A stretch of DNA of 64,000 nucleotides from Christensenellaceae bacterium (GTDB lineage: Bacteria; Bacillota; Clostridia; Christensenellales; SZUA-584), in the NCBI GenBank assembly GCA_963674545.2, contig CAXXFB010000001.1, positions 6,881 through 70,880 of the forward strand, read 5' to 3'. Numbering within the stretch: position 1 is the stretch's first letter; the number at the start of each line of letters is the position of its first letter. Shown here piece by piece: positions 3,192 to 23,871 of this stretch. The notes under the pieces were generated by a model that was not told where the DNA came from, made no database searches, and saw only the letters and a program-made list of their open reading frames with translations. The position numbers and the translations under genes were made by a program.

Positions 3192-3397
3192 TGGAAGAGC
3201 ACAGAATAGAATAAAGCATTAAAAAGTTATCGGTGAATTTACTATTTTTAGCTATTTGTTGGAATTGAAGAATCAAAAAAAGACACAATTCGCTGCTGTA
3301 AGCAACTGCAATGGAATAGTAATGATTAAATTTGTTCAGAAGTAATTAAATAACATTTGCCGCTTAGTTTGTGTTAGAATATATCAGGGGTAAACGA

Positions 3398-4894
3398 ATG
3401 AGAAAAGCGGCAATTATACTACTGGTGTTAACTTTAATTATAACTGCAGGCTGTGTTAACCAAACATCGGCAATACTTAATGGAACAAAGAGTCTTACAT
3501 GGTGGTGTGAGAATAAATATTCACATGTAAACAACACAGGTGATTCTGAGGTTTACGCAGAGCTTATGAGTGAAACCGGTGTAGATGTTGTTTTTATTCA
3601 TCCACCAAAAGGTGAGCACAGGGAGCGTTTTTTGGCTTTGTTAAATGAGCAGACACTTCCGGATATTATTACGCATGATTTTGTTAATGACTACGCAGGT
3701 GGTGTCGAAAAAGCATTGAATGACGGGGTGATAATCCCGCTTAATGATATAATAGAGCAGCACTGCCCAAATCTTAATCAATATCTAATCGACAATCCGC
3801 AGGTCAAAGAACTAATAAGCACTAAAGATGGACGAATTTTCTGTTTTCCTTCCATACAGCAGGAAAGAGAAATCAGAACATATATAGGCCCGTTTATTAG
3901 AAAAGACTATTTGGACGAACTGGAACTAAGCCTGCCAACAACTGTGAATGACTGGTATAACGTAATGACAGCTTTTAAAACTGAATTAGGAATCACACCT
4001 CTTTCTTTCTACGGTGGTAAAATTATCGATACGAATTTTCTTATCGGTGCATATGGAATATGCTGGGATTTCTATCAGGAAAATGGCCAAGTTAAGTTTG
4101 GCCCGATGGAAGATGAATTTGCTGATTTTATGCTTGAGTTCAAGAAGTGGTATAACGAGGGACTGATATCGCCCGGAGTTTTTACTGATTCACAAAAAAC
4201 ATATGAGGCAAAAGCTAAAAGAGGCGAAATCGGTATTTATATTGATTATATATCATCCATCGCAACTTATCAGAGCAGTATCACAGAGGCAGAATTTGAA
4301 CCGCTTTATTACCCGGTATTGCAAGATGGTGATACTGTGTTCTCAGGGTATATTGCTCCGGTTTTTGTGCCTTACTCAAGCTGTTATATATCGAGTGACA
4401 ACAAGGATATAGAAGCAACAGCAAAGCTGCTTGACTATGCATATTCAGAAGACGGCGCTCTGCTTTTCAACTTTGGAATTCTAGGCGAGAGTTATGAACT
4501 GATTGACGGTGAGCCTTTTTATACGGATAATATATTATATGATGAAGATGGCTTTTCAATTGCAATCAAAAGATACTTGGCATCCGGTGCTTATATCAGA
4601 GACGAAAGACAATTCAAACAAATGCTGGTACTTGATTGCCAAATGAAAGCAGTAAACGTTTGGTCGGATACAAATGCAGACATAAATCAAATTCCGTCTA
4701 TAGTTTTAACACAGGAGCAAGCTGAAATCGTATCGTCTTTTAACAGCGTGTATATGGATACGCTTCTTAATTGGCTAAAAGATTATTGTCTATCTGATAA
4801 CGCTACTACTGTGCAAGCGCTTAGAGAGAAGCTTAAGGACCTGGGAATTGACGAGGTTATAGAGATTTATCAAGAGGTTTTGGATGAAACCTAA
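3398..4894 (+). CDS. Extracellular solute-binding lipoprotein (ABC family-1 SBP type), no cognate permeases nearby
   Basis: Signal peptide plus lipobox (LVLTLIITAGC). Size (~500 aa) and composition fit Firmicute carbohydrate SBPs. Start placed at ATG 3398 (GGGG RBS) rather than GTG 3371. Confidence 0.75.
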   Translation: MRKAAIILLVLTLIITAGCVNQTSAILNGTKSLTWWCENKYSHVNNTGDSEVYAELMSETGVDVVFIHPPKGEHRERFLALLNEQTLPDIITHDFVNDYAGGVEKALNDGVIIPLNDIIEQHCPNLNQYLIDNPQVKELISTKDGRIFCFPSIQQEREIRTYIGPFIRKDYLDELELSLPTTVNDWYNVMTAFKTELGITPLSFYGGKIIDTNFLIGAYGICWDFYQENGQVKFGPMEDEFADFMLEFKKWYNEGLISPGVFTDSQKTYEAKAKRGEIGIYIDYISSIATYQSSITEAEFEPLYYPVLQDGDTVFSGYIAPVFVPYSSCYISSDNKDIEATAKLLDYAYSEDGALLFNFGILGESYELIDGEPFYTDNILYDEDGFSIAIKRYLASGAYIRDERQFKQMLVLDCQMKAVNVWSDTNADINQIPSIVLTQEQAEIVSSFNSVYMDTLLNWLKDYCLSDNATTVQALREKLKDLGIDEVIEIYQEVLDET

Positions 4895-7058
4895 ATCAAG
4901 AAGCAACAAATTGTTTCGAAAGTGGCTGCTTATACAGTTTTGCTTTCTAGCATTCATGACTGCTGTAACAGCGGGTGTTTATTTCTATACAAATCACCAT
5001 ATAAAAAGGCAGATCGATGAGTTGTATATCAGCAACTTGGAAAGAACTGAAGCAGAAGTGGATTCCGTTTTTCAGTATGCAGCTGCTACAGTTAATGAAT
5101 ATAATATCCAGCCAAGAGTCAGAATGCTTTCAGGATTAGATTTAAGTGATAGTGAAAGGGATGTTGCACGACTGATTGATGACATCAAACAGACAAACTC
5201 AACGGCCAAGGGTATATCAGAAATAATAATCTACTTTAAGAACCAAGATGTATTTATCAGCTCGGCAGGAGTAATGGACAGGAAAATATTCTGTGACGTG
5301 TATTCTTCATCTACTGGAGATGAGAGAATTTCGATAATCGATGCTATATCGGATGAAACACTCGCAGACACAATAGTTCCGGTTAACAATGGGAGGAATG
5401 GCACGAATACAGCAATTTATTCTGAAGAAGCAGTTGATAATATTTTTATTAGTGCAGTCATAGACGCTGTACAAATTGAAGATATTCTAAATGCAAACCT
5501 GCAAAGTGAACGGAATGCTTTTTGTGTATTTGCTGGTAATGAGCTTATATTTGCTCATGGGAGTGATATTCAAAATGAACTTTATAAAAGTGTCGGTTTA
5601 GGCGATTTTGATCAGTTTCAGAAAGTTAAAAGCAGCAACACGGAATATGTTTACCTGGCTTCTGATGATAATGATATAAAATACGTTTCCTTGATAAATG
5701 AAGATAATTACTTCGCCGGAAAGTATCGTATTCAAAGCATAGCAATTATAATTCTTTCGGTTTCGATTTTGCTTGGTGCAGGGATTTCATACTACATAAC
5801 AAGATATAAATACAAGCCCGTAGAAACGGTTATCAACGTTTCAAAAGCTATTACGCCGAGCCATGTGTTTGCCAGCGATGATAATGAGCTAGAGCAAATC
5901 AAGGGAGCTATTGAGTTTATATATGAACAGAAGATGCAGACAAAGGCTGTTCTTGAGGAACATAATATTTACATAAAAGAAAATGCTATAAAGATGCTTT
6001 TAGATGGAGATATTCGTTATCAAGATATAACCGAGCATGTAAAATCTCTAATTGATATTGACCAATACAAAGCCTATTGTGTTGCTGTAATAGATGATGA
6101 AAAATATCTTAACACATATCGGGAAGATCAACAAACAAATATATTTTTATCAAAAGCAAAGCATGTAATTTCCAAGGGCGGACGAGTGATTGCGGTATTT
6201 GAGTCGAAAGCTGATGAGGTTGTTGCTATACTAAATAAGCAAATAACTGAGATTAGTATAGACGGTACTATTGCCGTTGGAATGGAATGTATAGGGCATG
6301 AAGGAATAAAAACAAGCTATGATCATGCGCTTCTGGGTTTAAGCAGAAAAATACTTCCTGATACACCCCGGGTCATACCACCGCTGAGCAGCAGAGAAGC
6401 GGGGGCTATAACGATATCGACAGAAAACGAAATCCGGTTAGGCGGATTTATACAATCAGGAGATACGGATAAGGCGTTGGCGATGCTCAAAGAACTGGCC
6501 GGGGAGCACGGGATCAACAACCTGAATTATTTTTCATTTAAAACTTATCTATATAATATATCAAATATAATAATTAGGAGCGCTGAAAATGTATTGAGTG
6601 AAGATACATTGAGAAAACTGCTTGAAGATTTTAATTCTGCGTTTAAGCAGGAAGATTATCAAAGCATTTCTAAAGCTTTAATAGATTCAACGCAATATGT
6701 TACAGTTCGATATAGAGAAAAAATGAACAGCTCTAACAAGAATCTTAACGCAAGCCTTGTTAAATATATCGAAAACAAAATATCAGAACCCCAGCTTTCT
6801 TCAGATATGATCGCTGAGGCGATGAGACTCAATTCTGCTTATCTGAGACGATTCTTTAAAGAACAGAATGGAATTACATTGTGGGATTTTATTAACATGA
6901 AAAGAATTGAGACAGCAAAAAACAAGCTTATTACAACCGATTTAAGTATAAAAAATATTTCTTTAACCTGTGGTTACGTTAGTATCTCGACTTTTGTCAG
7001 AACATTCAAGAAATTCTCGGGCATGACACCCGGGCACTACAGAAACTTATACAGATAG
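4884..7058 (+). CDS. Membrane-anchored AraC/XylS-family transcriptional regulator with an extracytoplasmic sensor region
   Basis: 724 aa. Layout: TM helix (LLIQFCFLAFMTAVTAGVYFY), ~250-aa external segment, second TM (IAIIILSVSILLGAGISYYI), then a cytoplasmic region. C-terminal AraC double HTH (SAYLRRFFKEQNGITLWDFINMKRIETAKNKL...CGYVSISTFVRTFKKFSGMTPGHYR). ATG overlaps the SBP stop by 11 nt. Confidence 0.8.
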   Translation: MKPKSRSNKLFRKWLLIQFCFLAFMTAVTAGVYFYTNHHIKRQIDELYISNLERTEAEVDSVFQYAAATVNEYNIQPRVRMLSGLDLSDSERDVARLIDDIKQTNSTAKGISEIIIYFKNQDVFISSAGVMDRKIFCDVYSSSTGDERISIIDAISDETLADTIVPVNNGRNGTNTAIYSEEAVDNIFISAVIDAVQIEDILNANLQSERNAFCVFAGNELIFAHGSDIQNELYKSVGLGDFDQFQKVKSSNTEYVYLASDDNDIKYVSLINEDNYFAGKYRIQSIAIIILSVSILLGAGISYYITRYKYKPVETVINVSKAITPSHVFASDDNELEQIKGAIEFIYEQKMQTKAVLEEHNIYIKENAIKMLLDGDIRYQDITEHVKSLIDIDQYKAYCVAVIDDEKYLNTYREDQQTNIFLSKAKHVISKGGRVIAVFESKADEVVAILNKQITEISIDGTIAVGMECIGHEGIKTSYDHALLGLSRKILPDTPRVIPPLSSREAGAITISTENEIRLGGFIQSGDTDKALAMLKELAGEHGINNLNYFSFKTYLYNISNIIIRSAENVLSEDTLRKLLEDFNSAFKQEDYQSISKALIDSTQYVTVRYREKMNSSNKNLNASLVKYIENKISEPQLSSDMIAEAMRLNSAYLRRFFKEQNGITLWDFINMKRIETAKNKLITTDLSIKNISLTCGYVSISTFVRTFKKFSGMTPGHYRNLYR

Positions 7059-7196
7059 CTTTTTTCTTGGGATTGTATCAAATTGAATACATAAACACAA
7101 AGTGAATATTTCATGTTCTCTTTGTTTTGTATACCATGGATACAGGAGATAAATTTATAAAATCCATATCTAATCAATAAGAAAGGAGTCTGAATT

Positions 7197-7430
7197 ATGT
7201 TGGAATTCTTTAAAAACGGCGGAGTGTTTTTGTTCGATGAAGAAGATGCAGCAAGTGAGAGATCTTTTTATAAGTTAGAGGATCTGATGGGTGAAGAAGA
7301 GGGCGCAGACATTACAGAAGCTTATATAGAAGATGACGGCGAGATATGTGTTTTCTATGACAGCACTATACTAAACGAGGAACAGGCTGTTGAGAAATAT
7401 AAAAAAGGAGATTATTCAAAACAAATTTAA
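7197..7430 (+). CDS. Hypothetical small acidic protein
   Basis: 77-aa ORF with AAAGGAG RBS. Very D/E-rich. No recognisable motif. Confidence 0.45.
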   Translation: MLEFFKNGGVFLFDEEDAASERSFYKLEDLMGEEEGADITEAYIEDDGEICVFYDSTILNEEQAVEKYKKGDYSKQI

Positions 7431-7444
7431 GGGAGGCTGTCCAA

Positions 7445-8035
7445 ATGAAAAAAATATTAATAGTATTAATTGCTGTTTCATTAACATTAAGCTTTGCAAG
7501 CTGTAAATCACAGCAACAAAAAATGATGGAGCAAGCCATGCAGGAATTTGAGGATATGACTGGTCAGGAGCAGTACGGCGATTCTGATTCAATGCAAGAT
7601 TGGGAAGACGACATGGAACCAAATGACGATGGGTTTACTGATGATTATCAGAACGAACAAGCCGGCGTTGATGATTGCGATGGAAACTATGATAGAGAAG
7701 GCGAGACATACGTTGAAGATGGAGAGAACAGCGTACAGCTTGGCGGAGGCGAATGGCCGGAAGGTGCACCTGATGTTATCGAAGAACCTAAATTCGGTGA
7801 AGCTGAAATCAGTGGAATCATTTCATCAGACAGTGGTACAGTTGTCACATACTTAAGCGTTGCTAGAGAAGAAGCAGCGACATTGATTGGATCATATCTG
7901 GACAATAATGATTGGAAGATGCTTGCTCATACAAATGACAGCGATTGGGAAGTGTATTCCGGTCAGAACGGAAACATTGTTCTTACGATTGAATGGGATA
8001 GTGGAGATTTTTCTATTCTATGGGAAACATTTTAG
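7445..8035 (+). CDS. Acidic lipoprotein, unknown function (paralogue of 25394-25903)
   Basis: Signal peptide plus lipobox (LTLSFASC), D/E-rich linker, C-terminal beta-rich domain. GGGAGG RBS. Confidence 0.7.
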   Translation: MKKILIVLIAVSLTLSFASCKSQQQKMMEQAMQEFEDMTGQEQYGDSDSMQDWEDDMEPNDDGFTDDYQNEQAGVDDCDGNYDREGETYVEDGENSVQLGGGEWPEGAPDVIEEPKFGEAEISGIISSDSGTVVTYLSVAREEAATLIGSYLDNNDWKMLAHTNDSDWEVYSGQNGNIVLTIEWDSGDFSILWETF

Positions 8036-8177
8036 TTCATCTCTGATACAAAATAATTCAATGCACAAAGTGGAGTTATATCAAAATATATACATATTTC
8101 ACTTTGGGCGTTATTACTAATATGGATTGACATAGTGGATAATATTGGTACCTATCATAGTCATCAGGTATACTTAT

Positions 8178-8685
8178 TTAGTTTTGGAGGCAATATTTGA
8201 TGAAACCTATTGCCAATATATCATTTTCTGCAAAAACAGCTGTTGGGCCGTTCGTAAGCTTTATGAATTTGGACGCTGCGCCAAATCCTGTTTGCAGACG
8301 GAAACCACAATGATATTCCATTTCATTATAAATCTTAAGATGCGAGTTTTTGAGCGCCGTGTGAAACCCTTTTTGTTTTTCCTTTGAAACTCTGTCTAGG
8401 CCGCCGATATATCCGATTCTTTTATGCCCCCAAGGAAATAAAATGATTCGTTGCTGTTATCGTGCCTTCAACAACGTTTATACTGATGCAATTGAATTTT
8501 GGATCTGTGAGATTCCAGCTTATCATTATAATTGGAATATGCTGACTGTTATCGATCAGTTCCGCTAAAGATTCATCGTTGTCAACAAGGCATAAAACTA
8601 TTCCGTCAAAATGCTGAATCGATTGATTTATAAAGTGTTTTTTAAGTATATCCAGCTCATTGTTAGCGGTATATAATACAGGCAC
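8178..8685 (-). pseudogene. LacI-family regulator remnant (ligand-binding core only; frameshifted, truncated at both ends)
   Basis: ORF 8422-8685 ends ...NCISINVVEGTITATNHFISLGA*. After the C5 run at 8427-8431 the reading continues in another frame to the stop at 8178-8180: GHKRIGYIGGLDRVSKEKQKGFHTALKNSHLKIYNEMEYHCGFRLQTGFGAASKFIKLTNGPTAVFAENDILAIGFIKYCLQN*. These are typical LacI/PurR sugar-binding-fold motifs. No N-terminal HTH and no C-terminal third. Confidence 0.7.
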
Positions 8686-8879
8686 AAGGTTATTTTAATG
8701 GAAGATTCTTTAATGGATAATGAGTAATACAACTTTGATGGTTGAAACTAATTAAATTTTATACTAAGAGTTTTATCATGTTTGGAGTGAAGGTTGACAA
8801 GAATTTAAAGGTTTAATTAATTTAATACTTAGTATTTTAATAAAGGCGAATAAAAAAGAGTTAAATCTTATAAGGGGTA

Positions 8880-9227
8880 AAAACTTCATAAAGGGTTCAA
8901 AAAAGCTTTTAGCGGGGAATAGCAGCCTGATGATATGAGAAATGGGGCAATATGAAGTATAAGTATAGGAACAGGCAATTTTGGTGTAGAGGGTACTATG
9001 TAGATACAGCAGGTAAGAATGCTAAGAGAATAAAGGAGTACATCCAAAACCAGTTAAAGCAGGATGAACTGGGAGAACAACTAACGATGGAAGAAATAGA
9101 CTCGTTTACAGGTAGCACGTAACAGCTTTTCGCGTGCGCCAGACCGTACCAACGCCCTTTAGGCGTGGCTAGTATTAAAGGTCTATGCACGAAAGTCATG
9201 ACCACCCGTTTTACGGGTGGTCATGAC
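8880..9227 (+). mobile_element. Decayed IS200/IS605-family copy (3' third of tnpA plus right-end hairpin)
   Basis: 8952-9122 encodes MKYKYRNRQFWCRGYYVDTAGKNAKRIKEYIQNQLKQDELGEQLTMEEIDSFTGST*. This matches the C-terminus of the intact TnpA at 24755-25225 (LKYKYGNRHFWCRGYYVDTVGRNARVIEEYIKNQLQED...DPFTG). An out-of-frame GNSSLMI stretch (~8915-8935) matches GKSSLMI of that protein. The terminal hairpin GTCATGACCACCCG-TTTTA-CGGGTGGTCATGAC (9195-9227) is shared with the intact copies. The left boundary is approximate. Confidence 0.75.
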
Positions 9228-9996
9228 TGTATTATTATATTTTCCTCAGTGCAAACTTTTAGTAGAAGTCAGTATCTCTCGGAACTAATCTCTCTGGATA
9301 ACTATAGAGCCAAATTCATTGTAATCAGTTCTAAATGTCTCTGGTTTACTTCTTATATCTTAAATTGACAAGAGTTAATTGATTTTTAATGGGAAATTAA
9401 TGTATTCCTATCGCTTATATTATTCAAGCTAAAAAAATCAATAAAAAGTTAAAGATTATATGGCTTATATATTTAATATACGGATTTAAGTCTAAAAGAT
9501 GTCATATATATCTAAAATAAATTTTTCGAGATTGAAAGCGGCTTAAAATGTCGTTAGTTTTTTGCTTGCTATATCCAATAGGATTAAATTCATAAAAAAT
9601 ATTAAATCAATTAAGCATATTGTCGAAGCTTGCCCTGTTTGTCTCTATTAATGGTTACGTAACCATATATGAAAAAGCCCATTTAAATGTAATATTTTAT
9701 ATTAAACCCCGTAGTTTACTAAATTTAAAATTATTTAGCTATTAAAAGTATGAAAAATCCGATAAAAAATATTTAGTGCTGCTAAATCAACTATTTCTAT
9801 TTTGTGTACTCCTAAATATCTTAAAGTGTAAAATATGAAAATAGTATAAAATCGAATGAAATCAATAAGAATGTTAATTCAAATAAAAGATAAAGATAGT
9901 ATAATCAAGTAAACAATTTGTAAGTAAATTATTAAACTTAAAATAAAATAATACTTAAAAACAACTTCGCAATTATATTTTAGGGGAAGAAAGCAG

Positions 9997-10134
9997 ATGA
10001 AAGCGTTAAAGAAAATTCATTTAGGTGAGGATGGTGTACAACTTCTCACAAATGTTCCAGCTCCTGTTCCGGAAAGCGCCAGTTCTGTAGTTATACCGGC
10101 GCCGCATGAAGACATTTACAAGGCGATATATTAG
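9997..10134 (+). CDS. 45-codon micro-ORF whose C-terminus resembles a BMC-H tail (possible relic or small shell-associated peptide)
   Basis: GGGGAAGAAAG RBS then ATG. Product: MKALKKIHLGEDGVQLLTNVPAPVPESASSVVIPAPHEDIYKAIY*. SSVVIPAPHEDI parallels [12 protein letters not shown] and [12 protein letters not shown] of the two BMC-H genes downstream. Below the ORF-track size cutoff. Confidence 0.3.
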   Translation: MKALKKIHLGEDGVQLLTNVPAPVPESASSVVIPAPHEDIYKAIY

Positions 10135-10165
10135 ATTTCCAGTATAGGAAGGGAGAACAATTTCA

Positions 10166-10501
10166 ATGGATGCATTAGGAATGGTGGAGACGAGAGGGCT
10201 TGTCGGGGCGATCGAAGCGGCCGATGCTATGGTAAAGGCAGCGAACGTTGTACTTGTCGGCAAGGAGCAGATAGGTGCAGGGCTCGTTACCGTTATGGTG
10301 AGGGGAGACGTTGGAGCTGTCAAAGCTGCAGTCGAGGCCGGAAGCGCAGCGGCGGGAAGAGTCGGCGAGCTAAAGAGCACTCACGTTATACCGAGGCCGC
10401 ACAGCGATGTTGAGGGGATTTTGCCAAAGCAAAAGGCGGACAAAAAAGAAGCTCCAAAACCGGCAGCAAAACCTGCTGAGAAACCAACAGAGAAGAAGTA
10501 A
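10166..10501 (+). CDS. BMC-H hexameric shell protein (PduA/EutM family) with a Lys/Pro/Ala-rich C-terminal tail
   Basis: [26 protein letters not shown]...[21 protein letters not shown]...[15 protein letters not shown] is the canonical PF00936 signature. It carries an extra tail, [36 protein letters not shown]. Confidence 0.93.
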
Positions 10502-10774
10502 ATGTATACCGGCAAAGTCGTAGGGAGCGTGGTCTGTACAGTCAAGGACCCTTCGCTCAAAGGGATAAAACTAAAGCTGGTGGAAGTGATCGAGAATGGG
10601 AAGCCGGCGGGAGTGATCGTTGCGTCTGACGCTACACGCCAAGCGGGCAACGGAGATTTTGTATATCTTATCGGTTCCAAAGAGGCAGGTATGCCGTTTC
10701 TTGATCAAAATAAGCTAAACCCGGTAGACGCTTCAATTATGGGGTTTATCGATGAATATAATGAGAATATTTAG
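10502..10774 (+). CDS. BMC-P pentameric vertex protein (EutN/CcmL/PduN family)
   Basis: MYTGKVVGSVVCTVKDPSLKGIKLKLVEVI...DFVYLIGSKEA...NPVDASIMGFIDE follows the EutN pattern (M..G.VVG.VV.T.K...L.G.KLL.V). The start abuts the upstream stop (TAAATG). Confidence 0.88.
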   Translation: MYTGKVVGSVVCTVKDPSLKGIKLKLVEVIENGKPAGVIVASDATRQAGNGDFVYLIGSKEAGMPFLDQNKLNPVDASIMGFIDEYNENI

Positions 10775-10792
10775 TTTTGAAAGGAGCTAAAC

Positions 10793-11068
10793 ATGGAAAA
10801 GCAGGCATTAGGAATGGTTGAAACAAAAGGGCTCGTCGGAGCGGTCGAGGCAGCTGACGCTATGGTTAAGGCAGCGAATGTTACGCTGGTGGGGAAAGAA
10901 AAGATAGGCTCTGGGCTCGTAACCGTTATGGTTAGAGGCGACGTCGGCGCTGTCAAGGCAAGCGTGGATGCAGGCGCTGCTGCTGCCAAGAGAGTCGGAG
11001 AGCTGTTCAGCGTACATGTGATTCCAAGACCACATGAGGATGTTGAGTCGATACTTCCGGGCAAATAG
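10793..11068 (+). CDS. BMC-H hexameric shell protein (PduA/EutM family)
   Basis: 91 aa. 72 of 85 hand-aligned residues are identical to the 10166 product. Same PF00936 signature and [11 protein letters not shown] end. AAAGGAG RBS. Confidence 0.93.
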
Positions 11069-11079
11069 GAGAAGAAGAC

Positions 11080-11367
11080 TTGAAGATTGGCAGAGTAGTG
11101 GGCAACGTTGTGTCCACTGTTAAAAACGATACACACTACGGGTATAAGTTGTTGCTGATTGAATTTATAGATGCGCAGGGCAGAGCGACTTCGCCCAGGC
11201 AGATAGCGTTTGACGGCGCCGACGCAGGCGTTGAAGACATAGTGCTCATCAACGTTGACGGAGGCGCCGCAAAGATGATGCTTGAAGACGACGAGGTCAT
11301 TGCCGATCTTACTATATGCGGAGTGCTTGATCACTTCGCTATTGATGGGAAAACTATGCATCTATAA
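11080..11367 (+). CDS. BMC-P pentameric vertex protein (EutN/CcmL family), TTG start
   Basis: MKIGRVVGNVVSTVKNDTHYGYKLLLIEFIDAQG...DIVLINVDGGAAK...ADLTICGVLD closely parallels E. coli EutN (MKLAVVTGQIVCTVRHHGLAHDKLLMVEMIDPQG...). AGGAG RBS 8 nt before TTG. Confidence 0.88.
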   Translation: MKIGRVVGNVVSTVKNDTHYGYKLLLIEFIDAQGRATSPRQIAFDGADAGVEDIVLINVDGGAAKMMLEDDEVIADLTICGVLDHFAIDGKTMHL

Positions 11368-11434
11368 TTAGTATAACGAAAATACTATAGCCTGTTTTTG
11401 GCTGCAGTAAATTTAACAAGATGCGAGGATTGGC

Positions 11435-12199
11435 ATGGATTTAAATAACATTGATGTTAGAGAAATAGTTGAAAAGGTAACTAAGGAAGTCAACAAACGG
11501 ATAGGCAGCCAGGGGTTGAATATATCAGTTGCTGCTCATAACCTTTCATACGCTGAAGTGGCAGCTTCGATAGAACATTCCCTGCTTAACCCAGATATGA
11601 CGAGAGAGAAGATGATATCGGGATGTGCTGATGTCAAAAAGTACAGGTTTGCTAACGTTTGTGCTACGCCGTATTTCTGCTTTGACGCCGCAGAGGCTCT
11701 GCGTAGGAGCGGCATCCCGGTATGTGTGCCGGTGGGTTTCCCTCACGGAGCTGCAAGCACCGCTGCAAAGCTCACTGAAATTCGTGAAGCTATAATGAAT
11801 GGCGCAGGCGAGCTTGATTTGTCGCTGAATATCGTCGGAATAAAGTCTGGTGACTGGGACAAGGTCGAAAAAGACCTGCTAGAGATGATATTTGTGACAG
11901 GAGGCAGGGCGAAAGTCAAGGCTATATATGAGCAGGGGCTACTCTCCGAAGACGAAAAGATCAAGACGCTGACGCTTATAAAGCGATGCGGCACTGATTT
12001 TATAAAGATAAGCAATGCGCTGACTGGTAAAAAGGCGGCAGTGGAGGACGTCAAGTTCGTGCGCTCTATTGTTGGCAAAGGTATTGGCATCAAGATAGAC
12101 GGCGGTGTGAAGACTGCGGAGACGGTAAAGGAGCTTTTAGCTGCAGGAGCTGATCGCATAGGGGCCAGCGCTTCGGTCAAAATAGTTTCCGAAGGATAG
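11435..12199 (+). CDS. Deoxyribose-phosphate aldolase (DERA/DeoC) family protein, divergent, with ~34-aa N-terminal extension (putative BMC encapsulation peptide)
   Basis: Aligns end to end with the canonical DeoC at 55104-55805 (IEHSLLNP / IDHTLLKP; ELDLSLN / EVDMVVN; VKAIYEQG / VKTIIETC; FIKISNAL / FVKTSTGF; KIDGGVK / KASGGVR). Both catalytic Lys and the Asp are kept. The N-terminus NIDVREIVEKVTKEVNKRI is an amphipathic-helix-like segment absent from the canonical copy. Confidence 0.85.
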   Translation: MDLNNIDVREIVEKVTKEVNKRIGSQGLNISVAAHNLSYAEVAASIEHSLLNPDMTREKMISGCADVKKYRFANVCATPYFCFDAAEALRRSGIPVCVPVGFPHGAASTAAKLTEIREAIMNGAGELDLSLNIVGIKSGDWDKVEKDLLEMIFVTGGRAKVKAIYEQGLLSEDEKIKTLTLIKRCGTDFIKISNALTGKKAAVEDVKFVRSIVGKGIGIKIDGGVKTAETVKELLAAGADRIGASASVKIVSEG

Positions 12200-12690
12200 A
12201 CGGAACGGAGCACGCTATGTGGGGTTATTGGCATAATTGAGATGTGGGGGATTTTTTCATAAAACGAATAGGATTATACGTTCTTGTACAAACAAAAAAA
12301 GCATTAGAATTTTCTTAATCTTTTTTTTGAATGGTTACAACAGAATATAAGAGAATGAGCTATTAACATAATAAGTAATAATTAAAAGCAGTCAATAGAA
12401 TTCTTATGTGAGTTTCAATTACCGAATAATTCGGAATGATAATGTAGTGAGTACACAAAACCGTGCCAAATAGATAAAAATTATGATACAATTGATGCTC
12501 GCAGTAATCCGTGTGGGTACTTCTACGTTGGTTGCATATCGTTATATAACTTTTTATCAGAAGTACAATTTAATACGCAGTTTATTTTTAATAGTAGTTC
12601 AGATATAAATAGAAAATAACTTATTTATAAATATAGCTGGAGTAACGATGACTTACTCCGGCTATATTAGTTTTAAAATCAAACTATTCT

Positions 12691-12787
12691 GATGATAAAA
12701 TAAAAGCACTTCGTTTCCGACGTGCTTTAAAACTTTATCGAACAGGAAGTAATTGTTCTGTCCTATCCGAAATTATGGCGGAGAGAA
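12691..12787. repeat. Island-distal direct repeat (att-like): copy of the tRNA-Ser 3' end plus downstream spacer and terminator hairpin
   Basis: GATGATAAAATAAAAGCACTTCGTTTCCGACGTGCTTTAAAACTTTATCGAACAGGAAGTAATTGTTCTGTCCTATCCGAAATTATGGCGGAGAGA matches 23624-23721 apart from a few substitutions and indels. The longest identical blocks are 21 and 29 nt. Identity stops exactly after the 11 nt that correspond to CCA + discriminator + 3' acceptor strand. Confidence 0.85.
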
Positions 12788-12886
12788 GATATTAATTCCC
12801 AAACACATAAACCCTTATAAAACCCTTTAAATATAGGGAAAATTGCATAAATAGTTTCTTTCGAAAAATTGAAAGGAGCTACACAA

Positions 12887-13798
12887 ATGAAAGCCACAGA
12901 ACAAAATGAGCAAAACATCAATACATTACATTCTTTGCCCTTATCAAACCTAAAATCATTTTCAAAACATCCATTTAAGCTATATCCTGAAGAAAAAATG
13001 CTAGAGCTTATAGAAAGCATCAAAGAGCAAGGGATTATCGTTCCTATACTCGTTCGACCGATTGAGGATAATAAGTATAGTCACGAAATTGTTGCCGGGC
13101 ATAACAGAGTTAAAGCGGCACAACTTGCTGGACTGAAAAAGATATCTTGTGATGTTCGAAATATTGATGACAATACTGCGACTATTATGATGATTGACAG
13201 CAACCTTCAACAACGTGAAAATATTTTGCCCAGTGAAAAAGCTTTTGCATATAAATATAAACTTGATGCTATAAAATCTCAAGGGAAACGAAATGATATA
13301 ACTTTGTGCCAACTTGGCACAAAGTTGAATAGTGGCAGTCAAGTTGCAAACGAACATGAAGACAGCAGAAGAGATGTTTACAGATATATACGTTTAACAA
13401 ATCTTATCACCCTCTTGCTTGACAAGGTAGACGAAAGAAAACTTGCATTTATTCCTGCTGTAGAATTGTCGTATTTGAGCAAAGATGAACAAGAGTGGTT
13501 GTATGATATTTTAGATCGAGAAGAACATTTTGGAGTATCGCTTTCAATGGCAACAAAACTTAAGGGCATTAGCAAAAGCGGAACACTCACTTATGAAAAA
13601 ATTGATAAAATTATTGTAGCAAAAAATCAAGAGCCGCCAAAAGCAGTTAAAATTTCGTATAGAACAGTAAAAGATTATTTTCCTAAAGGTACAACACCAC
13701 AAGAATACGAAAAAGTTATAAAACAAGCGCTTGAAGAATGGTTTGAGAATCATCCTATTCCCAAAGAAAGAAATAAAAGCAAATCGATTGCACGATAA
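12887..13798 (+). CDS. ParB/Srx-domain protein (plasmid/ICE-type ParB-like nuclease or partition protein)
   Basis: LSNLKSFSKHPFKLYPEEKMLELIESIKEQGIIVPILVRP...YEIVAGHNRVKAAQLAGLKKI is the ParB N-terminal domain signature (G-H-x-R). AAAGGAG RBS before ATG 12887. Confidence 0.8.
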   Translation: MKATEQNEQNINTLHSLPLSNLKSFSKHPFKLYPEEKMLELIESIKEQGIIVPILVRPIEDNKYSHEIVAGHNRVKAAQLAGLKKISCDVRNIDDNTATIMMIDSNLQQRENILPSEKAFAYKYKLDAIKSQGKRNDITLCQLGTKLNSGSQVANEHEDSRRDVYRYIRLTNLITLLLDKVDERKLAFIPAVELSYLSKDEQEWLYDILDREEHFGVSLSMATKLKGISKSGTLTYEKIDKIIVAKNQEPPKAVKISYRTVKDYFPKGTTPQEYEKVIKQALEEWFENHPIPKERNKSKSIAR

Positions 13799-13879
13799 TA
13801 TTTTAACTAATAATTTATTTTGAGTATCAGAAATGATGCTCTTTTTCTATACAAAAAATTAAGAAATGAGGTTAAAAAA

Positions 13880-14569
13880 ATGATAAATCCGAACGAAGAA
13901 ACTTATGAAGAAATAGTCATAGGTGATATTCCAGCAATATTCACATCACTAAGAATTGACCGTGATAAATTACCACAAGGCGTTTTTGCTTACGACATTC
14001 GACATGCAGATGAAGACAGAATGGAAGCAGCGGAAATAGCAAAAAATGTGTTGGTAAACCACATGGGCACTGTGTTAACAAAAGAACCACTTGATCTTGA
14101 TGAAAACGGATCAATGATTTTAGAAGAGTATGATTTTTGCTTTGTCGCAGAATCCACATCTATTACATTAGAACAGTTTTTAATCGGCGAAAAAAGATTA
14201 TCAAATTCTATTGATGTTGTTGTAGTGCAGCCGTTCTGTCAACCATCAAGCCAGAATATAAAAAATGACCTAACTACACTGCAACAGCAGGTCGGCGGTT
14301 ATATAGAAATGATAAGTCCATTTAAAGATAAAAATATTTGCCTCATATGTAATGAAGAAGGGAAAATCAAAGGTTTGCCGCTTAATAGACAAGTGGGTAA
14401 TGATATTATCGCAGGTACATTCATTATAGCTGGAGTTGGCAATGATGGAGAATTGGTTTCTTTGAATGATAAGCAGATACAACAGTACAAAGATAAATTT
14501 AATGATTTGGATTTATCCGACTTCACTGATGATAATAAGAACCATCGAAAAGGATATATTGAAAGATAA
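13880..14569 (+). CDS. Mobile-element protein, YodL/LPD28-like N-terminus and DUF3846-like C-terminus (recollection)
   Basis: FAYDIRHADED...VLVNHMGTVLT, then LQQQVGGYIEMISPF...LICNEEGKIKGLPLNRQV...IAGTFIIAGV. These resemble domains common on Firmicute conjugative elements and plasmids. GAGG RBS before ATG 13880. Confidence 0.45.
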   Translation: MINPNEETYEEIVIGDIPAIFTSLRIDRDKLPQGVFAYDIRHADEDRMEAAEIAKNVLVNHMGTVLTKEPLDLDENGSMILEEYDFCFVAESTSITLEQFLIGEKRLSNSIDVVVVQPFCQPSSQNIKNDLTTLQQQVGGYIEMISPFKDKNICLICNEEGKIKGLPLNRQVGNDIIAGTFIIAGVGNDGELVSLNDKQIQQYKDKFNDLDLSDFTDDNKNHRKGYIER

Positions 14570-14591
14570 TATAAGAAAAGAGGTATTGATA

Positions 14592-15506
14592 ATGATAATT
14601 GGAGTAGATCACGGCTATGGTTGTATAAAAACGCCAAACCATATTTTCACAACTGGAATAACCGAATATGAAAAAGAACCTTACACTATACAGAATGTTG
14701 TGAAATTTAACGGGAAATATTATGTGTGTGGCAGCGGCAGACAATCTCTTGTCAGGGATAAGACAGAAGACGACAGTTATTATATCTTGACACTTGCGGC
14801 GATTGCAAAAGAAATGAAATACAGAAAGGCAGGAACAAAAGATAATATCATATTAGCAGCAGGTCTGCCATTAACCAGTTTTGGTAGAGATAAAGAAAAG
14901 TTCACAAAGTATCTTAAACGTTCTTTGTTCCAGCCAGTGAAATTTGAATTTGAAGATCAGGAATACAAAATAAACATAACGGACGTGATGATGTATCCAC
15001 AAGGATATCTAGCTGTAATAGATTATTTAGACAAGTTGAAAAGCGAACCATCGGTCATTGTCTGTGATGTGGGAAGTTGGACGGTTGATGTTATGCGTCT
15101 TGATAATGGCAGACCAAATGCGTCAACTTGCAGGAGCTTAGAACTTGGTATTATAAGAATGATAGATGAAATACTAGAGCAGATCAGGCGGAGCACAGGA
15201 CTGTCGGTAACATCTGCGCAAGTTGAGCAAGTACTAAAAAACCAACCTTGCAGCCTGAATGAAAAGGCAAACGAGATAATTCGAGAGCAAGGGAAAACTT
15301 ATGTGGACACCCTGTTTCATACTCTTCTTGAAAGTGGTTTTGACGTTGCAGCCGTACCAATTATCTTCTTAGGCGGCGGAGCTTCATTTTTAAAACAAAA
15401 TGTTGGGAAAAACAGAATAGCAAAGGTTAGCTATATAGAGGATATTCGTGCTAATGCAATCGGCTATGAGAAAATAACAAGTCGGAAAATAGGTGAAGTT
15501 AAATGA
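14592..15506 (+). CDS. parM: ParM/StbA-family actin-like segregation ATPase
   Basis: MIIGVDHGYGCIKT (phosphate-1), VIVCDVGSWTVDVM (phosphate-2) and IFLGGGASFL (adenosine motif) are the actin-fold signatures. AAGAGG RBS before ATG 14592. Confidence 0.75.
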   Translation: MIIGVDHGYGCIKTPNHIFTTGITEYEKEPYTIQNVVKFNGKYYVCGSGRQSLVRDKTEDDSYYILTLAAIAKEMKYRKAGTKDNIILAAGLPLTSFGRDKEKFTKYLKRSLFQPVKFEFEDQEYKINITDVMMYPQGYLAVIDYLDKLKSEPSVIVCDVGSWTVDVMRLDNGRPNASTCRSLELGIIRMIDEILEQIRRSTGLSVTSAQVEQVLKNQPCSLNEKANEIIREQGKTYVDTLFHTLLESGFDVAAVPIIFLGGGASFLKQNVGKNRIAKVSYIEDIRANAIGYEKITSRKIGEVK

Positions 15507-15760
15507 ATGATTATAGAATCAGCGTGAGGCTTAATCTTGAAAAATTATTACACAGAAAAGCATATGAAATATTAGCAACGATACCGAACCGAAAGAAATC
15601 GGATTTTGTAGTATATGCTCTTATAACTGCGAAAGAAAGAGAAACAACCATAGCAGAAATGGAGCAAGTGGTAAAAAAGGCTATGGATGGCGCAGCAATA
15701 TCAAAGCCCAAAGAAGAAAACGGTATGGATATGGCTATGGACTATCTTGAAAGTTTGTAA
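15503..15760 (+). CDS. Small ribbon-helix-helix-like protein, likely ParR-type adaptor
   Basis: 85 aa, overlaps the parM stop by 4 nt. N-terminal YRISVRLNLEKLLHRKAYEIL fits a beta-strand/helix RHH start. The position downstream of parM is typical of type II partition loci. Confidence 0.45.
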   Translation: MNDYRISVRLNLEKLLHRKAYEILATIPNRKKSDFVVYALITAKERETTIAEMEQVVKKAMDGAAISKPKEENGMDMAMDYLESL

Positions 15761-15825
15761 TCAAAAATGACATTCAAAAAAACAAGTGATACTCTGTTTA
15801 TATAAAAGGAAGGGAGCCGAAAAGA

Positions 15826-16110
15826 ATGAATGCAAACGAAATAATGAAACTTCATGCCGAGAAAACCATTGATATATCAAGTATTGATGATGATAGCTAT
15901 TTTGGAGATGGATGGGCTGTTTTACATCTTAGTCAATATAATTACATTAAAGGGTTGCATTATATAGCTGATGATGAAGATGATTTTAATCATCTGAACT
16001 ATATCGCTGAGTTTGATATCGAAGAAAATGATAGTATATATCATGGATTTATTGAAGAATATACTTTCTTCGTAACAGAGATCATAAAAGAAAAACAAGC
16101 TCAAAAATGA
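15826..16110 (+). CDS. Hypothetical small, strongly acidic protein
   Basis: 94-aa ORF with GGAAGGGAG RBS. D/E-rich (DDDSYFGDGW...ADDEDDF...DIEEND). Confidence 0.5.
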   Translation: MNANEIMKLHAEKTIDISSIDDDSYFGDGWAVLHLSQYNYIKGLHYIADDEDDFNHLNYIAEFDIEENDSIYHGFIEEYTFFVTEIIKEKQAQK

Positions 16111-16233
16111 CTTCGCTACATACTAGATGGAATCCTTTTTATAATGAAAGAGGTGGTATGGTTATAGAATCAGGTTGCATATTTCTTGAGAAATGCTAAT
16201 TGGGAAACATACTCTATTTTTAATATTTTCATT

Positions 16234-17052
16234 CTATTCTTCTGACTTAGTGGAAACATCTGGGAAAAAGATTTGCAACGATCTCAAATAGTGATGGGGA
16301 TAAAAAATATATCCTATTGATTCAATATCAATGATTGTTGCATTGTTAATATTTTTTGCTAATAAAAAATCATAGAGTTTTTTTAGTGCGTATTGTTTAT
16401 CAGGAGTCTTATAATTGAGACAAAGATAATTGCCTTTTGGGAAAAACTTTATCAGTTTGCTTTTCTTATTTCCAAAATTTTTTACACAGGTGTATACCTG
16501 TGATTCTTTTATTGTTTGATTTTCTATACTATGAATCAAACCACTTTCAAAAGTGCCCTTTAGGTTATCGTGTTTTTGTACTATACCTAAATTAATAAAA
16601 GCCATTTCAATTTCTTCGGGGGTTGGTTCTATGGAGCATGAAGCAGATAAGAAATAACGAGAAGGAAAATATTTTATATAAGGCTCACCAGAGGAGTTTT
16701 CAGCTTTTAAAAGATTCAGCTGATTTTCTATTGCCTCAATGTCATCAACAGCTATTTTCAGAGCCTCTATCTCCTGTAGTGCTTTTACCTTTTGTTCTAT
16801 TAAAATACTAATAGTATATTGGATATTATTTTCTAAGAAAGCACCTTTAAGCTGACTATATGGGATGCCGACTTGTTTACAATACTTGATGATATCAATG
16901 ATTAGAAATTGGCTGACATGATAATAGCGATAGCCGTTATCTTGATTAACATAAGCAGGTTTTAAAAGACCTTCTCTATCGTAAAGTCGTAATGCCTGTA
17001 TTGAAATGTCTTTTAATTTTGACACTTGTCCTATAGATAAATAGCCTTGCAA
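16234..17052 (-). CDS. MerR-family transcriptional regulator with C-terminal effector-binding (GyrI-like) domain
   Basis: N-terminus YLSIGQVSKLKDISIQALRLYDREGLLKPAYVNQDNGYRYY is the MerR HTH signature. Then a coiled-coil and a ~150-aa C-terminal domain. TTG start with GAGAGGA RBS. Confidence 0.85.
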   Translation of the reverse strand: MQGYLSIGQVSKLKDISIQALRLYDREGLLKPAYVNQDNGYRYYHVSQFLIIDIIKYCKQVGIPYSQLKGAFLENNIQYTISILIEQKVKALQEIEALKIAVDDIEAIENQLNLLKAENSSGEPYIKYFPSRYFLSASCSIEPTPEEIEMAFINLGIVQKHDNLKGTFESGLIHSIENQTIKESQVYTCVKNFGNKKSKLIKFFPKGNYLCLNYKTPDKQYALKKLYDFLLAKNINNATIIDIESIGYIFYPHHYLRSLQIFFPDVSTKSEE

Positions 17053-17071
17053 TTAAATACATTCCTCTCTA

Positions 17072-17102
17072 TTGACTCTATACCTAGTATATACTTTATA
17101 CT
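17072..17102 (+). promoter_or_regulatory. MerR-type promoter for the CDF gene: -35 TTGACT, 19-bp spacer containing inverted repeat TATAC-CTA-GTATA, -10 TATACT
   Basis: TTGACT (17072-17077), 19-nt spacer CTATACCTAGTATATACTT, TATACT (17097-17102). The overlong 19-bp spacer with a dyad is the hallmark of MerR-activated promoters. Confidence 0.65.
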
Positions 17103-17135
17103 TGAATTATCGTCAAGTCAAGAAAGAGAGCTGAA

Positions 17136-18026
17136 ATGGAAATTATAAAACAGGAGCAAAGGGCGTTAAAAAAAGGGAATTTGGTTAATTTGTTTATGGC
17201 AATTGCAGGGGTTTTGATAGCTTTGTTATCAAATTCGTCAGCGCTGTTGATGGATGGACTATTTTCATTTATCCAATTTATTTCAACAGTAACAGCTACA
17301 AAAATATCTAAGGATATGGGCGAAAAGAATATAGAAAAGTACCCGATGGGACAACAGACTAAAGAGGTACTATATGTTCTTTTCAGATCATTTTTAATTT
17401 TGGTATTAACCATTAGCTTTTTAGTAAATAGCATCAAAAAAATAATAGACTTTGTAGTCTTTTCCAAGGAGATACCAATAATAAATACAAAATATCTTCT
17501 TATTTACGGTATTATTATGGTAGTCCTTTGCTTGTTTCTAGTGGTGATATATAATTGGCATAACAAAAAAATAAACAATATTTCTTCCATTTTAAAGACA
17601 GAAGCGATAGGGGCATTAATGGATAGCATTGTTAGCATAGCCGCAGTAGGTGCTTTAATTCTTGTTGAGGCAGTTCAGGCATTATCACCCATAAGACCCA
17701 TAGCAGATGCTATATTGGTTGTCGTTATTTCTGTATTCTTTTTAAAAGAGCCAATTAAAATATTCTTCAAACAGATAGTGATATTGTCAAGGAAGCGGAC
17801 TAATTATAAAGAAGAAATCGAAATCAAAGAGTTGCTGAAAAAAGAGGTGTGTCATGCTACAGTAGAAGCATTATTCATATGGTCTTTAGGGAAAACAAAG
17901 GAGGTATATATAAAGCTGAAAATAGAAGACAGTCTCACTGTAAAAGATGTAGTGGATGTAAAAAGAAATATTGAAGAGATTATTAATAATAGAGACAAAC
18001 AGAGCATTGTTATTATAAACATATAA
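17136..18026 (+). CDS. Cation diffusion facilitator (CDF) family transporter, divergent
   Basis: 296 aa with ~6 predicted TM segments followed by a cytoplasmic alpha/beta C-terminal domain. The N-terminus (ALKKGNLVNLFMAIAGVLIALLSNSSALLMDGLFS) resembles CDF TM1-TM2, but the usual His/Asp metal-site residues are not obvious. Confidence 0.55.
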   Translation: MEIIKQEQRALKKGNLVNLFMAIAGVLIALLSNSSALLMDGLFSFIQFISTVTATKISKDMGEKNIEKYPMGQQTKEVLYVLFRSFLILVLTISFLVNSIKKIIDFVVFSKEIPIINTKYLLIYGIIMVVLCLFLVVIYNWHNKKINNISSILKTEAIGALMDSIVSIAAVGALILVEAVQALSPIRPIADAILVVVISVFFLKEPIKIFFKQIVILSRKRTNYKEEIEIKELLKKEVCHATVEALFIWSLGKTKEVYIKLKIEDSLTVKDVVDVKRNIEEIINNRDKQSIVIINI

Positions 18027-18163
18027 AGGCTTTAATAATGGGTAAGGTACATATTCATGTAGTGCAACTTAAAACAGAAGAAGTAACATAAATCGGAATC
18101 GGAGCAGTTTTGTTACTGTCAAATAAAATTCCCTGCTTTTTGGCAAATAAGATTCCCTACTTT

Positions 18164-18910
18164 TTATTTAGTATTTTCCACAAAGATCTGTTTTCTGTGA
18201 GCTAAGCGGTAACTGTCGTCGGAAAATGAAAGCACCTGACATTTATGAGTCAACCTATCCAACAAAGCGGTTGCTAGAATCGAATCACCAAGAACATCAG
18301 CCCATCCGTCAAAACCCTTATTAGAAGTAATTACGACAGAAGTATTCTCGTATAAATGAGATATCAGTTGGAAGAACATATTGGCTTCTGTTTTCCCAAC
18401 CGGTAGATAACCTAGCTCGTCAATAATAAGTAAGTCTGCTTCCTTGATCCACTTAAGACGTGCTGCTGAACTTCTGGATATCTCTTGTGTTTTCAGGATA
18501 TGAACAAGCGTATCCATAGAGGAAAAGAAAACCTTGTATCCAATCTCCACAGCCTTGTTTCCGATAGCCAGAGCAAGATGTGTCTTTCCTGTTCCCGGAG
18601 GACCGATTAAGATCAGGTTGTATATTCCTTCAATCCAAGTAAGGGCGGCCAACTGATTTAACTGCCAGGTGGTAATCCCTTTCTGAAACTCTGTATCAAA
18701 CGTCTCAAAGCCCTTGTAAGTCGGCAGACAGGCTTGCTTGATCCTTCGTTTCTTTTTATTCTCCTCTCGATATAAAACCTCATCATGCAGACAGTTCGCT
18801 AGGAAAGCCTCGTTGGATATTTGCTCATTTAAAAAAGGAAATGTTCTCCTGGACATATTCGCAAGTCCAAGCTGTTTTGCATATGTACGGATGCGTTCAA
18901 CGTCTGTCAT
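18164..18910 (-). CDS. istB: IS21 helper ATPase IstB
   Basis: Walker A LILIGPPGTGKTHLALAIG and Walker B LLIIDELGY. 248 aa. Start overlaps the istA stop. Confidence 0.9.
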   Translation of the reverse strand: MTDVERIRTYAKQLGLANMSRRTFPFLNEQISNEAFLANCLHDEVLYREENKKKRRIKQACLPTYKGFETFDTEFQKGITTWQLNQLAALTWIEGIYNLILIGPPGTGKTHLALAIGNKAVEIGYKVFFSSMDTLVHILKTQEISRSSAARLKWIKEADLLIIDELGYLPVGKTEANMFFQLISHLYENTSVVITSNKGFDGWADVLGDSILATALLDRLTHKCQVLSFSDDSYRLAHRKQIFVENTK

Positions 18911-20442: not shown

Positions 20443-20549
20443 TTCTGCCTGCCTCCATTTATACTCTCATTCGAGTATAAATGGACAAGCTCTTTTATTC
20501 ATTAAGTAGGGAAAATTGTTTGCCAAAAACCGTCCAATATAGTTTACCA

Positions 20550-20726
20550 GTTACACTAGGCGAATACTTTTACAATGATACAGATACTTTGATAGCAATA
20601 GTAGGAAAGAGCTTTTATGATCAGTATGGAAATATTAAAAACTTATCATTATCCAATAATAACGGAACCCTATCAGAATTTGAAGAAAAGATTATTGATA
20701 TTTATAGGGTAAGGGATAATGGCTGA
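20550..20726 (+). pseudogene. 3' remnant (~58 codons) of a gene formerly coupled to mcrC, possibly mcrB-like; now fused in frame to an ATG inside the IS21 end
   Basis: The ORF-track entry 20481-20726 starts inside IS21 (which ends at 20549). The native part VTLGEYFYNDTDTLIAIVGKSFYDQYGNIKNL...RVRDNG* has no start codon of its own. In the reconstructed pre-insertion sequence the frame is closed by TAA 18070-18072. Its stop overlaps the mcrC start (ATGGCTGA). Confidence 0.35.
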
Positions 20727-21978: not shown

Positions 21979-22104
21979 GTACTAATTAATCGGGAAATTA
22001 TTGCTAACTATATCGGAAAACTAAAAATTACATGATATCGCCCATTTAAAAATGCGAGTAAAAGAATTGATTTTCTATCGCTGTTATAACAAAAGGGGGT
22101 TAAG

Positions 22105-22296
22105 ATGCGTAAAAATGCAAAAGAGCCCAGCAGAATTTATACAAGATTCTATAACGAGACAAAAGTAATAAATGATTGGACGGATGAAGATGAGTTGACG
22201 GAAGCAATGATAAAGCTGTTTAGTAAAGAAGCGGTTAAATCTATTCAAAAAAAAGTAGCTAGTGCTATTGATGAGTTCGATTGGGTGGAGGCTTAA
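22105..22296 (+). CDS. Hypothetical small protein, apparently in an operon with the downstream ARH gene
   Basis: 63-aa ORF with AAGGGGG RBS. Its stop lies 4 nt before the ARH start. Confidence 0.5.
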   Translation: MRKNAKEPSRIYTRFYNETKVINDWTDEDELTEAMIKLFSKEAVKSIQKKVASAIDEFDWVEA

Positions 22297-22300
22297 GCAA

Positions 22301-23605: not shown

Positions 23606-23623
23606 TTGTATTTGGAATAGCCA

Positions 23624-23800: not shown

Positions 23801-23871
23801 ACATAAAACGCAAGCACTATTCTAGCACAAAGAAACCAAAATAACAACAGCTAAATTAAAGTTTGGAATAA

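Follow-up and report, generated by a model that had tools for sequence, protein, structure and literature searches.

The microcompartment cassette

The 64,000-nucleotide stretch analysed here (the window), from contig CAXXFB010000001.1 of a Christensenellaceae bacterium (assembly GCA_963674545.2), carries on its forward strand a compact cassette of five bacterial microcompartment (BMC) genes, in which BMC-H and BMC-P shell genes alternate and are followed by an aldolase of the DeoC family. We consider it highly probable that what has survived in this cassette is the 3' tail of a second metabolosome operon of the sugar-phosphate utilization (SPU) type, a reading that follows from the gene fragment at its upstream edge and from the longer operons found in its relatives.

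The five open reading frames (ORFs) had been proposed in an earlier reading made from the letters alone (hereafter the sequence-only reading), and were confirmed together with their families. The first BMC-H gene (10166-10501, 111 aa; PF00936, E 4e-29) encodes a protein 85% identical to its positional orthologue in the related locus L001, and the BMC-P gene that follows (10502-10774, 90 aa; PF03319, E 4e-17) has a product with 93-94% identity to the L001 and L022 orthologues. The second BMC-H (10793-11068, 91 aa; PF00936, E 7e-30) is 100% identical to the orthologue in L022, while the second BMC-P (11080-11367, 95 aa; PF03319, E 7e-20) reaches 86-87% with L001 and L022, and the deoxyribose-phosphate aldolase (DERA) gene (11435-12199, 254 aa) scores 179 bits against TIGR00126. 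The two BMC-H proteins have 72 of 85 residues in common, exactly as had been counted by hand, and the two BMC-P proteins are as far diverged as had been claimed, being alignable over their first 31 residues only, with 16 of those 31 identical. The BMC-P encoded at 10502-10774 is the second, and that encoded at 11080-11367 the third, member of the BMC-P triplet that is the norm in SPU loci (PMC11585597), so that two such genes stand in the cassette; the missing first one, of about 106 aa, lies upstream of the aldehyde dehydrogenase (AldDH) gene in the relatives.

The first BMC-H has a Lys/Pro/Ala-rich C-terminal tail (residues 88-111, window 10427-10501), and its exact sequence forms a singleton cluster. 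Residue 52 of the second BMC-P (window 11233-11235) is Glu, against Gly in 34 of 34 relatives (AGVGD changed to AGVED), the sole notable departure from family-invariant residues among the shell genes. The GC content of the cassette is 48.8%, and the GC content at third codon positions of its five genes (0.50-0.54) is about one standard deviation above that of the host ORFs (0.45 ± 0.05).

A tblastn search of the 64 kb with reference proteins from a complete related locus found no phosphotransacylase (PTAC), SPU-type AldDH, PduS or full-length BMC-T. No AldDH (PF00171) lies within 20 kb of the cassette, and the single PF00171 protein of the window (32831-34321) is a generic aldehyde dehydrogenase with 24% identity to the BMC type. 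Besides the five genes, the window holds no other microcompartment gene except a BMC-T stub of 17 codons. The sequence-only description of a cassette deprived of its enzymatic core is therefore accurate for the enzymes and for a full BMC-T, and has to be amended for the stub, which it had overlooked.

A truncated gene at the upstream junction

The stub (10078-10134, forward strand) is the 3' end of a BMC-T gene and marks the 5' breakpoint of the operon, at about 10078 ± 5 nt. It forms part of a chimeric ORF of 45 aa (9997-10134, forward strand), in which 28 orphan codons with their own ribosome-binding site (RBS) and ATG are fused in frame to the end of BMC-T. Residues 29-45 of the chimeric product (SSVVIPAPHEDIYKAIY*) are identical at 17 of 17 positions to the BMC-T C-terminus of L022 and have 83% identity to the BMC-T C-termini of L001 and L044, and the parent gene is, judged by these matches, a predicted PduT-like tandem BMC-T. 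Between the window and all relatives, DNA homology extends from 10080-10087 to 12198-12201, where the DERA gene has its stop codon; by nucleotide alignment, the breakpoint falls at about 10078-10081.

The 28 orphan codons had no match in any of the related loci fetched. The 45-aa product is a singleton cluster, known from the source contig only, in a collection of about 15 billion proteins, and its sole match among 1.84 billion cluster representatives is itself. At the opposite end the cassette is intact: the sequence after the DERA gene varies among relatives, so that the conserved block ends naturally with DERA.

A candidate sigma-70-like promoter (9878-9905, forward strand; TTCAAA, 16 nt, TATAAT), with 10 of 12 consensus matches, precedes the chimeric ORF by about 90 nt and could, with the RBS and ATG of that ORF, drive expression. 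Promoter-like sites in the AT-rich region number 10, with 9.9 expected by chance, and a terminator scan was likewise at chance level.

Full-length operons in related genomes

The genomic context of aldolase homologues was fetched from genome and metagenome collections, and eleven reference proteins were mapped on each locus. In the relatives the operon runs in the order PTAC (PF06130), a protein of 214-228 aa, BMC-P (about 106 aa), AldDH (PF00171), PduS (RnfC-like), a tandem-domain BMC-T (181 aa), BMC-H, BMC-P, BMC-H, BMC-P and EP-tagged DERA (EP, encapsulation peptide). In all 26 loci with at least 1.5 kb of sequence upstream of DERA, H-P-H-P-DERA closes a longer operon at its 3' end; the gene immediately before this block is BMC-T in 24 of them and AldDH in the other two (L018 and L019). 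Wherever at least 6.5 kb was available upstream, PTAC, the 214-228-aa protein, the first BMC-P and AldDH were all present (17/17 loci). The sequence-only reading had proposed a search of relatives for the five genes as a free-standing unit; this arrangement was seen in none of the 26 loci.

The block of the window is collinear with the 3' end of the complete operons, at 77-88% DNA identity. Its shell proteins are 81-100% identical to those of the lineage of L001, L022 and L044, and its DERA is 78-84% identical to those of L001 and L044; in L022, the closest relative (88% DNA identity), the last BMC-P is not followed by a DERA. Among the less regular loci, L026 is without one H-P pair, L018 and L019 are without PduS and BMC-T, and in L040 the match to DERA is partial and is not preceded by shell genes.

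The 214-228-aa protein encoded between PTAC and the first BMC-P (L001 4357-5001, L002 4429-5097, L044 4413-5060, L046 8956-9630 and L048 6942-7628) has an N-terminal amphipathic helix resembling an encapsulation peptide (EP) and a conserved C-terminal motif, GAIVTPLA.DAAKE.GI. No match to it was found in Pfam or among PDB sequences.

The tagged aldolase

The TIGR00126 deoC profile (179 bits, with a cut-off of 117) matches residues 42-251 of the aldolase, which leaves an N-terminal extension of about 40 aa, as the sequence-only reading had noticed. A homologue search with the aldolase returned thousands of full-length homologues that include this extension. An AlphaFold (AF2) model built on an alignment of 53 sequences (pLDDT 90.8) has a helix at residues 8-25, a low-confidence linker at residues 26-37 and a TIM barrel, and this helix-plus-linker extension agrees with those published for SPU DERAs (PMC11585597). 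A single-sequence AlphaFold model (pLDDT 40.6) was set aside for the alignment-based one. The hydrophobic moment of the protein is highest at residues 7-24, and its N-terminus is modelled as an EP-like amphipathic helix, whose motif DVREIVEKVTKEVN resembles that of the aldolase of locus L048, MELEALIEKITQEVY. Residues D128, K162 and K191 are invariant across the 53 homologues and align with what we take to be D102, K167 and K201 of the Escherichia coli DERA. With a Schiff-base lysine, a second lysine and an aspartate in place, the enzyme is predicted to be a class I deoxyribose-phosphate aldolase. A second deoC gene, untagged, lies in the window at 55104-55805 (233 aa), which gives the genome a cytosolic DERA in addition to the tagged enzyme.

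A probable main locus elsewhere on the source chromosome

When the L001-type AldDH was used as query, none of the best 120 matches (down to 65% identity) came from the source contig, and the missing half of the operon was therefore lost, not moved. The same search had suggested that the source genome was without any SPU core, a reading that was rejected on finding P0288 (468 aa), a match to the AldDH of a related genome that is encoded on the source contig. P0288 has 71% identity with that query, 65% with P0311 and 61% with the AldDH of L001. Since two of its cluster mates, at least 90% identical, sit in complete loci (L047 and L048), it is very probable that the source genome has a complete SPU-like locus elsewhere. 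In L048 the order is PTAC, the protein of the 214-228-aa class (here 228 aa), BMC-P, AldDH, PduS, BMC-T, BMC-H, BMC-P, BMC-P, BMC-H, BMC-H and DeoC, followed by GntR, an alcohol dehydrogenase and others. The shell proteins of the window are 49-89% identical to those of L047, taken as a proxy of the P0288 locus, and its DERA 31%, and the window block does not appear to be a recent copy of this locus type.

The L048 aldolase (12972-13709) keeps an EP-like N-terminus and has 30% identity to the DERA of the window. It carries E and V at the positions of what we take to be D102 and K201 of E. coli, and it may not be a DERA.

A related genome of 3.09 Mb (a contig of 3,088,887 bp) has three complete SPU-type loci (L002, L003 and L046), and several such loci per genome are therefore normal in the clade; in two of the three, the encoded AldDH is the same, and so is the DERA. 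Co-occurrence of SPU loci with other BMC types is reported to be rare (PMC11585597); here, several loci of the SPU type itself stand together in one genome (L002, L003 and L046; see also L045).

Chromosomal context

The same 3.09-Mb genome is syntenic with positions 3330-8055 of the window at 82-86% DNA identity; synteny ends at 8055, and in both genomes transposases lie beyond the break. The DNA from the break to the cassette (8056-10079) has a GC content of 31.7%, and that downstream of the cassette (12200-12726) 30.4%, in accordance with the AT-rich flanks described from the sequence alone. On the upstream side, an ORF of 87 aa (8422-8685, reverse strand) has a weak match to a LacI-family sugar-binding domain (PurR residues 96-175, E 0.03) and is probably a piece of a pseudogene, lying where synteny breaks off. 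The insertion sequence (IS) relic noted in the sequence-only reading is the C-terminal third of an IS200/IS605 tnpA with its terminal hairpin (8915-9230, forward strand; Y1_Tnp profile positions 88-121 of 121). It matches IS200 tnpA genes on plasmids by blastn, and its hairpin (9193-9228) matches those at 23870-23898 and 24621-24649, beside the intact IS200 copies. A 78-nt IS3-like fragment and about 850 nt of non-coding DNA with 12-30% GC also lie between 8055 and the cassette.

On the downstream side, about 490 nt of AT-rich DNA separate the end of the cassette from the left copy (12691-12786) of a direct repeat of about 96 nt resembling an attachment (att) site, whose right copy (23624-23719) abuts a tRNA-Ser(GGA) gene (23709-23800, reverse strand). 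These repeats, which had also been recognized in the sequence-only reading, bracket an island of 10.9 kb (12787-23621) at the 3' end of tRNA-Ser. The island encodes a ParB-like protein, an LPD28+DUF3846 protein, an actin-like segregation protein, MerR, a cation diffusion facilitator transporter, IS21 istA/istB, McrBC and an ADP-ribosylglycohydrolase+DUF6508 protein, and no integrase gene was seen in it. Beyond the island lie two intact tandem IS200 tnpA genes (24021-24476 and 24755-25225, reverse strand) with conserved end hairpins. Compared with plasmids, the AT-rich flanks matched IS200 tnpA and ParB only, and an Rfam scan of the window returned the tRNA-Ser only and showed neither a riboswitch nor a leader ahead of the cassette. 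Given the synteny break, the IS relics, the AT-rich non-coding DNA and the tRNA-Ser island, the cassette belongs to a zone of plasticity beside a tRNA gene.

Discussion

SPU loci have been delineated in two surveys (Sutter et al. 2021, PMC8217296; Dwyer et al. 2024, PMC11585597). All curated members have an AldDH, a BMC-P triplet and an EP-tagged DERA, this DERA with its N-terminal extension being the signature enzyme; BMC-T(s) also belongs to the gene content, PTAC and PduS occur in some subtypes, and ribose-5-phosphate isomerase (RPI, PF02502) is absent from SPU5 and often from SPU4 (PMC8217296; PMC11585597). The block of the window has in common with these loci a DERA with an N-terminal helical extension, basal BMC-H paralogues and members of the BMC-P triplet, and its relatives hold the core of PTAC, AldDH, PduS and BMC-T(s) in one operon. 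It differs in having no AldDH, PTAC, PduS or first BMC-P, and in retaining of BMC-T(s) only the last 17 codons of the gene. The published curation, which demands at least one AldDH (PF00171) (PMC8217296; PMC11585597), would therefore discard the window copy as a fragment, and fragmentary SPU loci have indeed been mentioned and filtered out (PMC11585597). The other difference is that an RpiB-type RPI (PF02502) was found neither in the gene tables of the relatives' loci nor among the window ORFs scanned, the relatives having the 214-228-aa protein instead. Collinear as it is with the operons of all 26 informative relatives, the block appears, by orthology, to descend from an SPU-type operon, and the nearest type is probably one of the subtypes with PTAC and PduS and without BMC-T(dp), that is, SPU1, SPU4 or SPU7. 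Of the two origins entertained in the sequence-only reading, a satellite or relic of an SPU-type locus is supported by the position of the block at the 3' end of an 11-gene operon in every informative relative, by the BMC-T stub, by the restriction of the junction to the source contig and by P0288; the other, an undescribed minimal single-enzyme compartment, is not supported, for the five genes were seen as a unit in no other genome. The cassette is a degenerate member of a known locus type, an ordinary relic or satellite-like fragment of SPU. Its 1:1 ratio of H to P genes arose because a locus with three P genes lost its front half.

Two other known systems invite comparison. Satellite loci (described in 2014, PMC4207490; PMC8217296) likewise consist of a few shell genes and one enzyme, distant from the main locus, which in our case is a probable one, and some arise by fission of a main locus, as in the two BMC-P genes and an aldolase of type I HO (PMC8217296). 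Unlike them, the cassette has both H and P genes, and is formally a 'main locus' by the definition of PMC8217296; it has a gene stub showing truncation; and it was not split from the resident main locus, being closer to the lineage of L001, L022 and L044. With shells made of H and P proteins alone, such as the GRM2 particles (PMC6971018), it shares the parts list of a minimal small shell, namely BMC-H, BMC-P and an EP-tagged cargo. It differs from them in being known from its genes alone and in owing its gene set to loss and not to a conserved design.

In the intact organelle, DERA would split deoxyribose-5-phosphate into glyceraldehyde-3-phosphate and acetaldehyde, and AldDH and PTAC would then process the acetaldehyde within the shell, in keeping with the published SPU model, in which the acetaldehyde that DERA produces is taken away by an AldDH enclosed in the shell (PMC11585597). 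From the breakpoint and its surroundings we infer that a deletion or rearrangement took everything from PTAC through BMC-T except the last 17 codons; partial acquisition is a possible alternative origin. The event would have happened beside tRNA-Ser, where the chromosome is variable and has many islands and IS elements, and would have left the BMC-T stub fused in frame to DNA with which it has nothing in common. With no aldehyde sink and no means of cofactor recycling among them, the five genes are unable to carry out the metabolosome pathway by themselves. Most likely they are a recent relic; 26 of 26 relatives have a longer operon, a stub of BMC-T is left, and the junction is found on the source contig only. 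If they are transcribed, their products would most plausibly enter the compartment of the P0288-type locus, and the cassette would then be satellite-like.

Some of our own observations weigh against a mere relic. The five genes are all full length, without decay. Over 1,575 concatenated sites, the ratio of nonsynonymous to synonymous substitution rates (dN/dS) of the window versus intact loci is 0.048-0.065, and that among intact loci 0.054-0.069. Moreover, of the 265 alignment columns in which 28-36 relatives show no variation, the window deviates at 2 (G52E in the second BMC-P and a T-to-S change near the DERA C-terminus), and the intact relatives deviate at 0-3. This intact state fits selective retention as well as very recent truncation; the nearest relative is already at a dS of at least 0.4, and therefore neither dN/dS nor the invariant columns can separate recent truncation from continued selection. 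To these points are added the chimeric ORF's own RBS and ATG, in frame and preceded by a promoter-like site, the fact that the P0288 locus in the source genome is presumed complete from proxies at least 90% identical, and the unlikely event of an assembly chimera at the junction. A serious alternative, though a less likely one, is that the block was born by truncation and is now kept under selection as a satellite module, supplying shell subunits and EP-tagged DERA to the main SPU-like compartment, whose AldDH, PTAC and PduS would handle the acetaldehyde. Such a role would account for ORFs that are intact, with dN/dS of 0.05-0.065 and two invariant columns changed, and would suit a chromosome that encodes P0288, with its proxies in complete loci, and a DERA whose EP motif resembles that of the L048-type aldolase. 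A true DERA could also add a function to a compartment whose aldolase has E and V at the positions that we presume to be D102 and K201 of E. coli. Both fission-born satellites and 'functional extension' modules have been described (PMC8217296). However, no second genome has the arrangement; the native promoter region is gone, the promoter-like site being no better than chance; the block is surrounded by pseudogenes and relics of IS elements; in the second BMC-P, a glycine that does not vary elsewhere is replaced by Glu; and with dS of at least 0.4 to the nearest relative, a short period of relaxed selection would be undetectable by pairwise dN/dS.

The remaining explanations have far less in their favour. 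It is very improbable that the cassette is an autonomous minimal compartment, a new single-enzyme organelle in which H and P proteins close a small icosahedral shell around the tagged DERA. Both shell classes and an EP-tagged cargo are present and intact, and the GRM2 locus reportedly encodes BMC-H and BMC-P only, with no BMC-T. Recombinant shell genes of that locus give closed pT=4 particles (PMC6971018). Nevertheless, the cassette is a demonstrable product of truncation, with a BMC-T stub where 26 of 26 relatives have a longer operon, and this synteny and stub already largely refute its autonomy; the arrangement occurs in one genome only, a DERA enclosed without an aldehyde sink offers no obvious benefit, and an untagged cytosolic deoC already exists at 55104-55805. 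There is hardly any chance that the junction is an artefact, that is, a chimeric join at about 10078 in a long-read metagenome assembly of a genome that really has the complete operon. The source is a single contig of 3.30 Mb, in the same style as other metagenome-assembled contigs, and the sister contigs of L022 and L047 are full of frameshift errors; the genes of the window, however, are without frameshifts, the junction gives a clean in-frame ORF, the mobile elements of the flanks make a consistent picture, in which the IS200 hairpin has its match and the att repeats come as a pair, and no L001-type AldDH appeared on the source contig among the best 120 matches (at least 65% identity).

These results carry a caution for automated BMC surveys, since those that call any neighbourhood with H and P genes a 'main locus' would list the cassette as a minimal or novel type; here, a stub of 17 codons proves it to be a truncated SPU operon. 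An intact natural set of H-P-H-P genes with a tagged cargo could, on the other hand, be a convenient starting construct for shell engineering. We would give little credit, though somewhat more than none, to the remnant being a selectively kept plug-in module (two BMC-H, two BMC-P and the EP-tagged DERA) that re-programmes the other SPU-like compartment or, less likely, an autonomous DERA nanocompartment. The aldolase of the other compartment, judged by the proxies with at least 90% AldDH identity, is without equivalents of what we take to be E. coli D102 and K201. In the relatives' loci, in addition, the place at which one would look for an RPI is taken by a conserved EP-bearing protein that has no annotation. 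For this group of bacteria as a whole, the window and its relatives indicate that Christensenellales-like genomes can hold several paralogous SPU-type loci and can lose parts of them in mobile-element hot spots.

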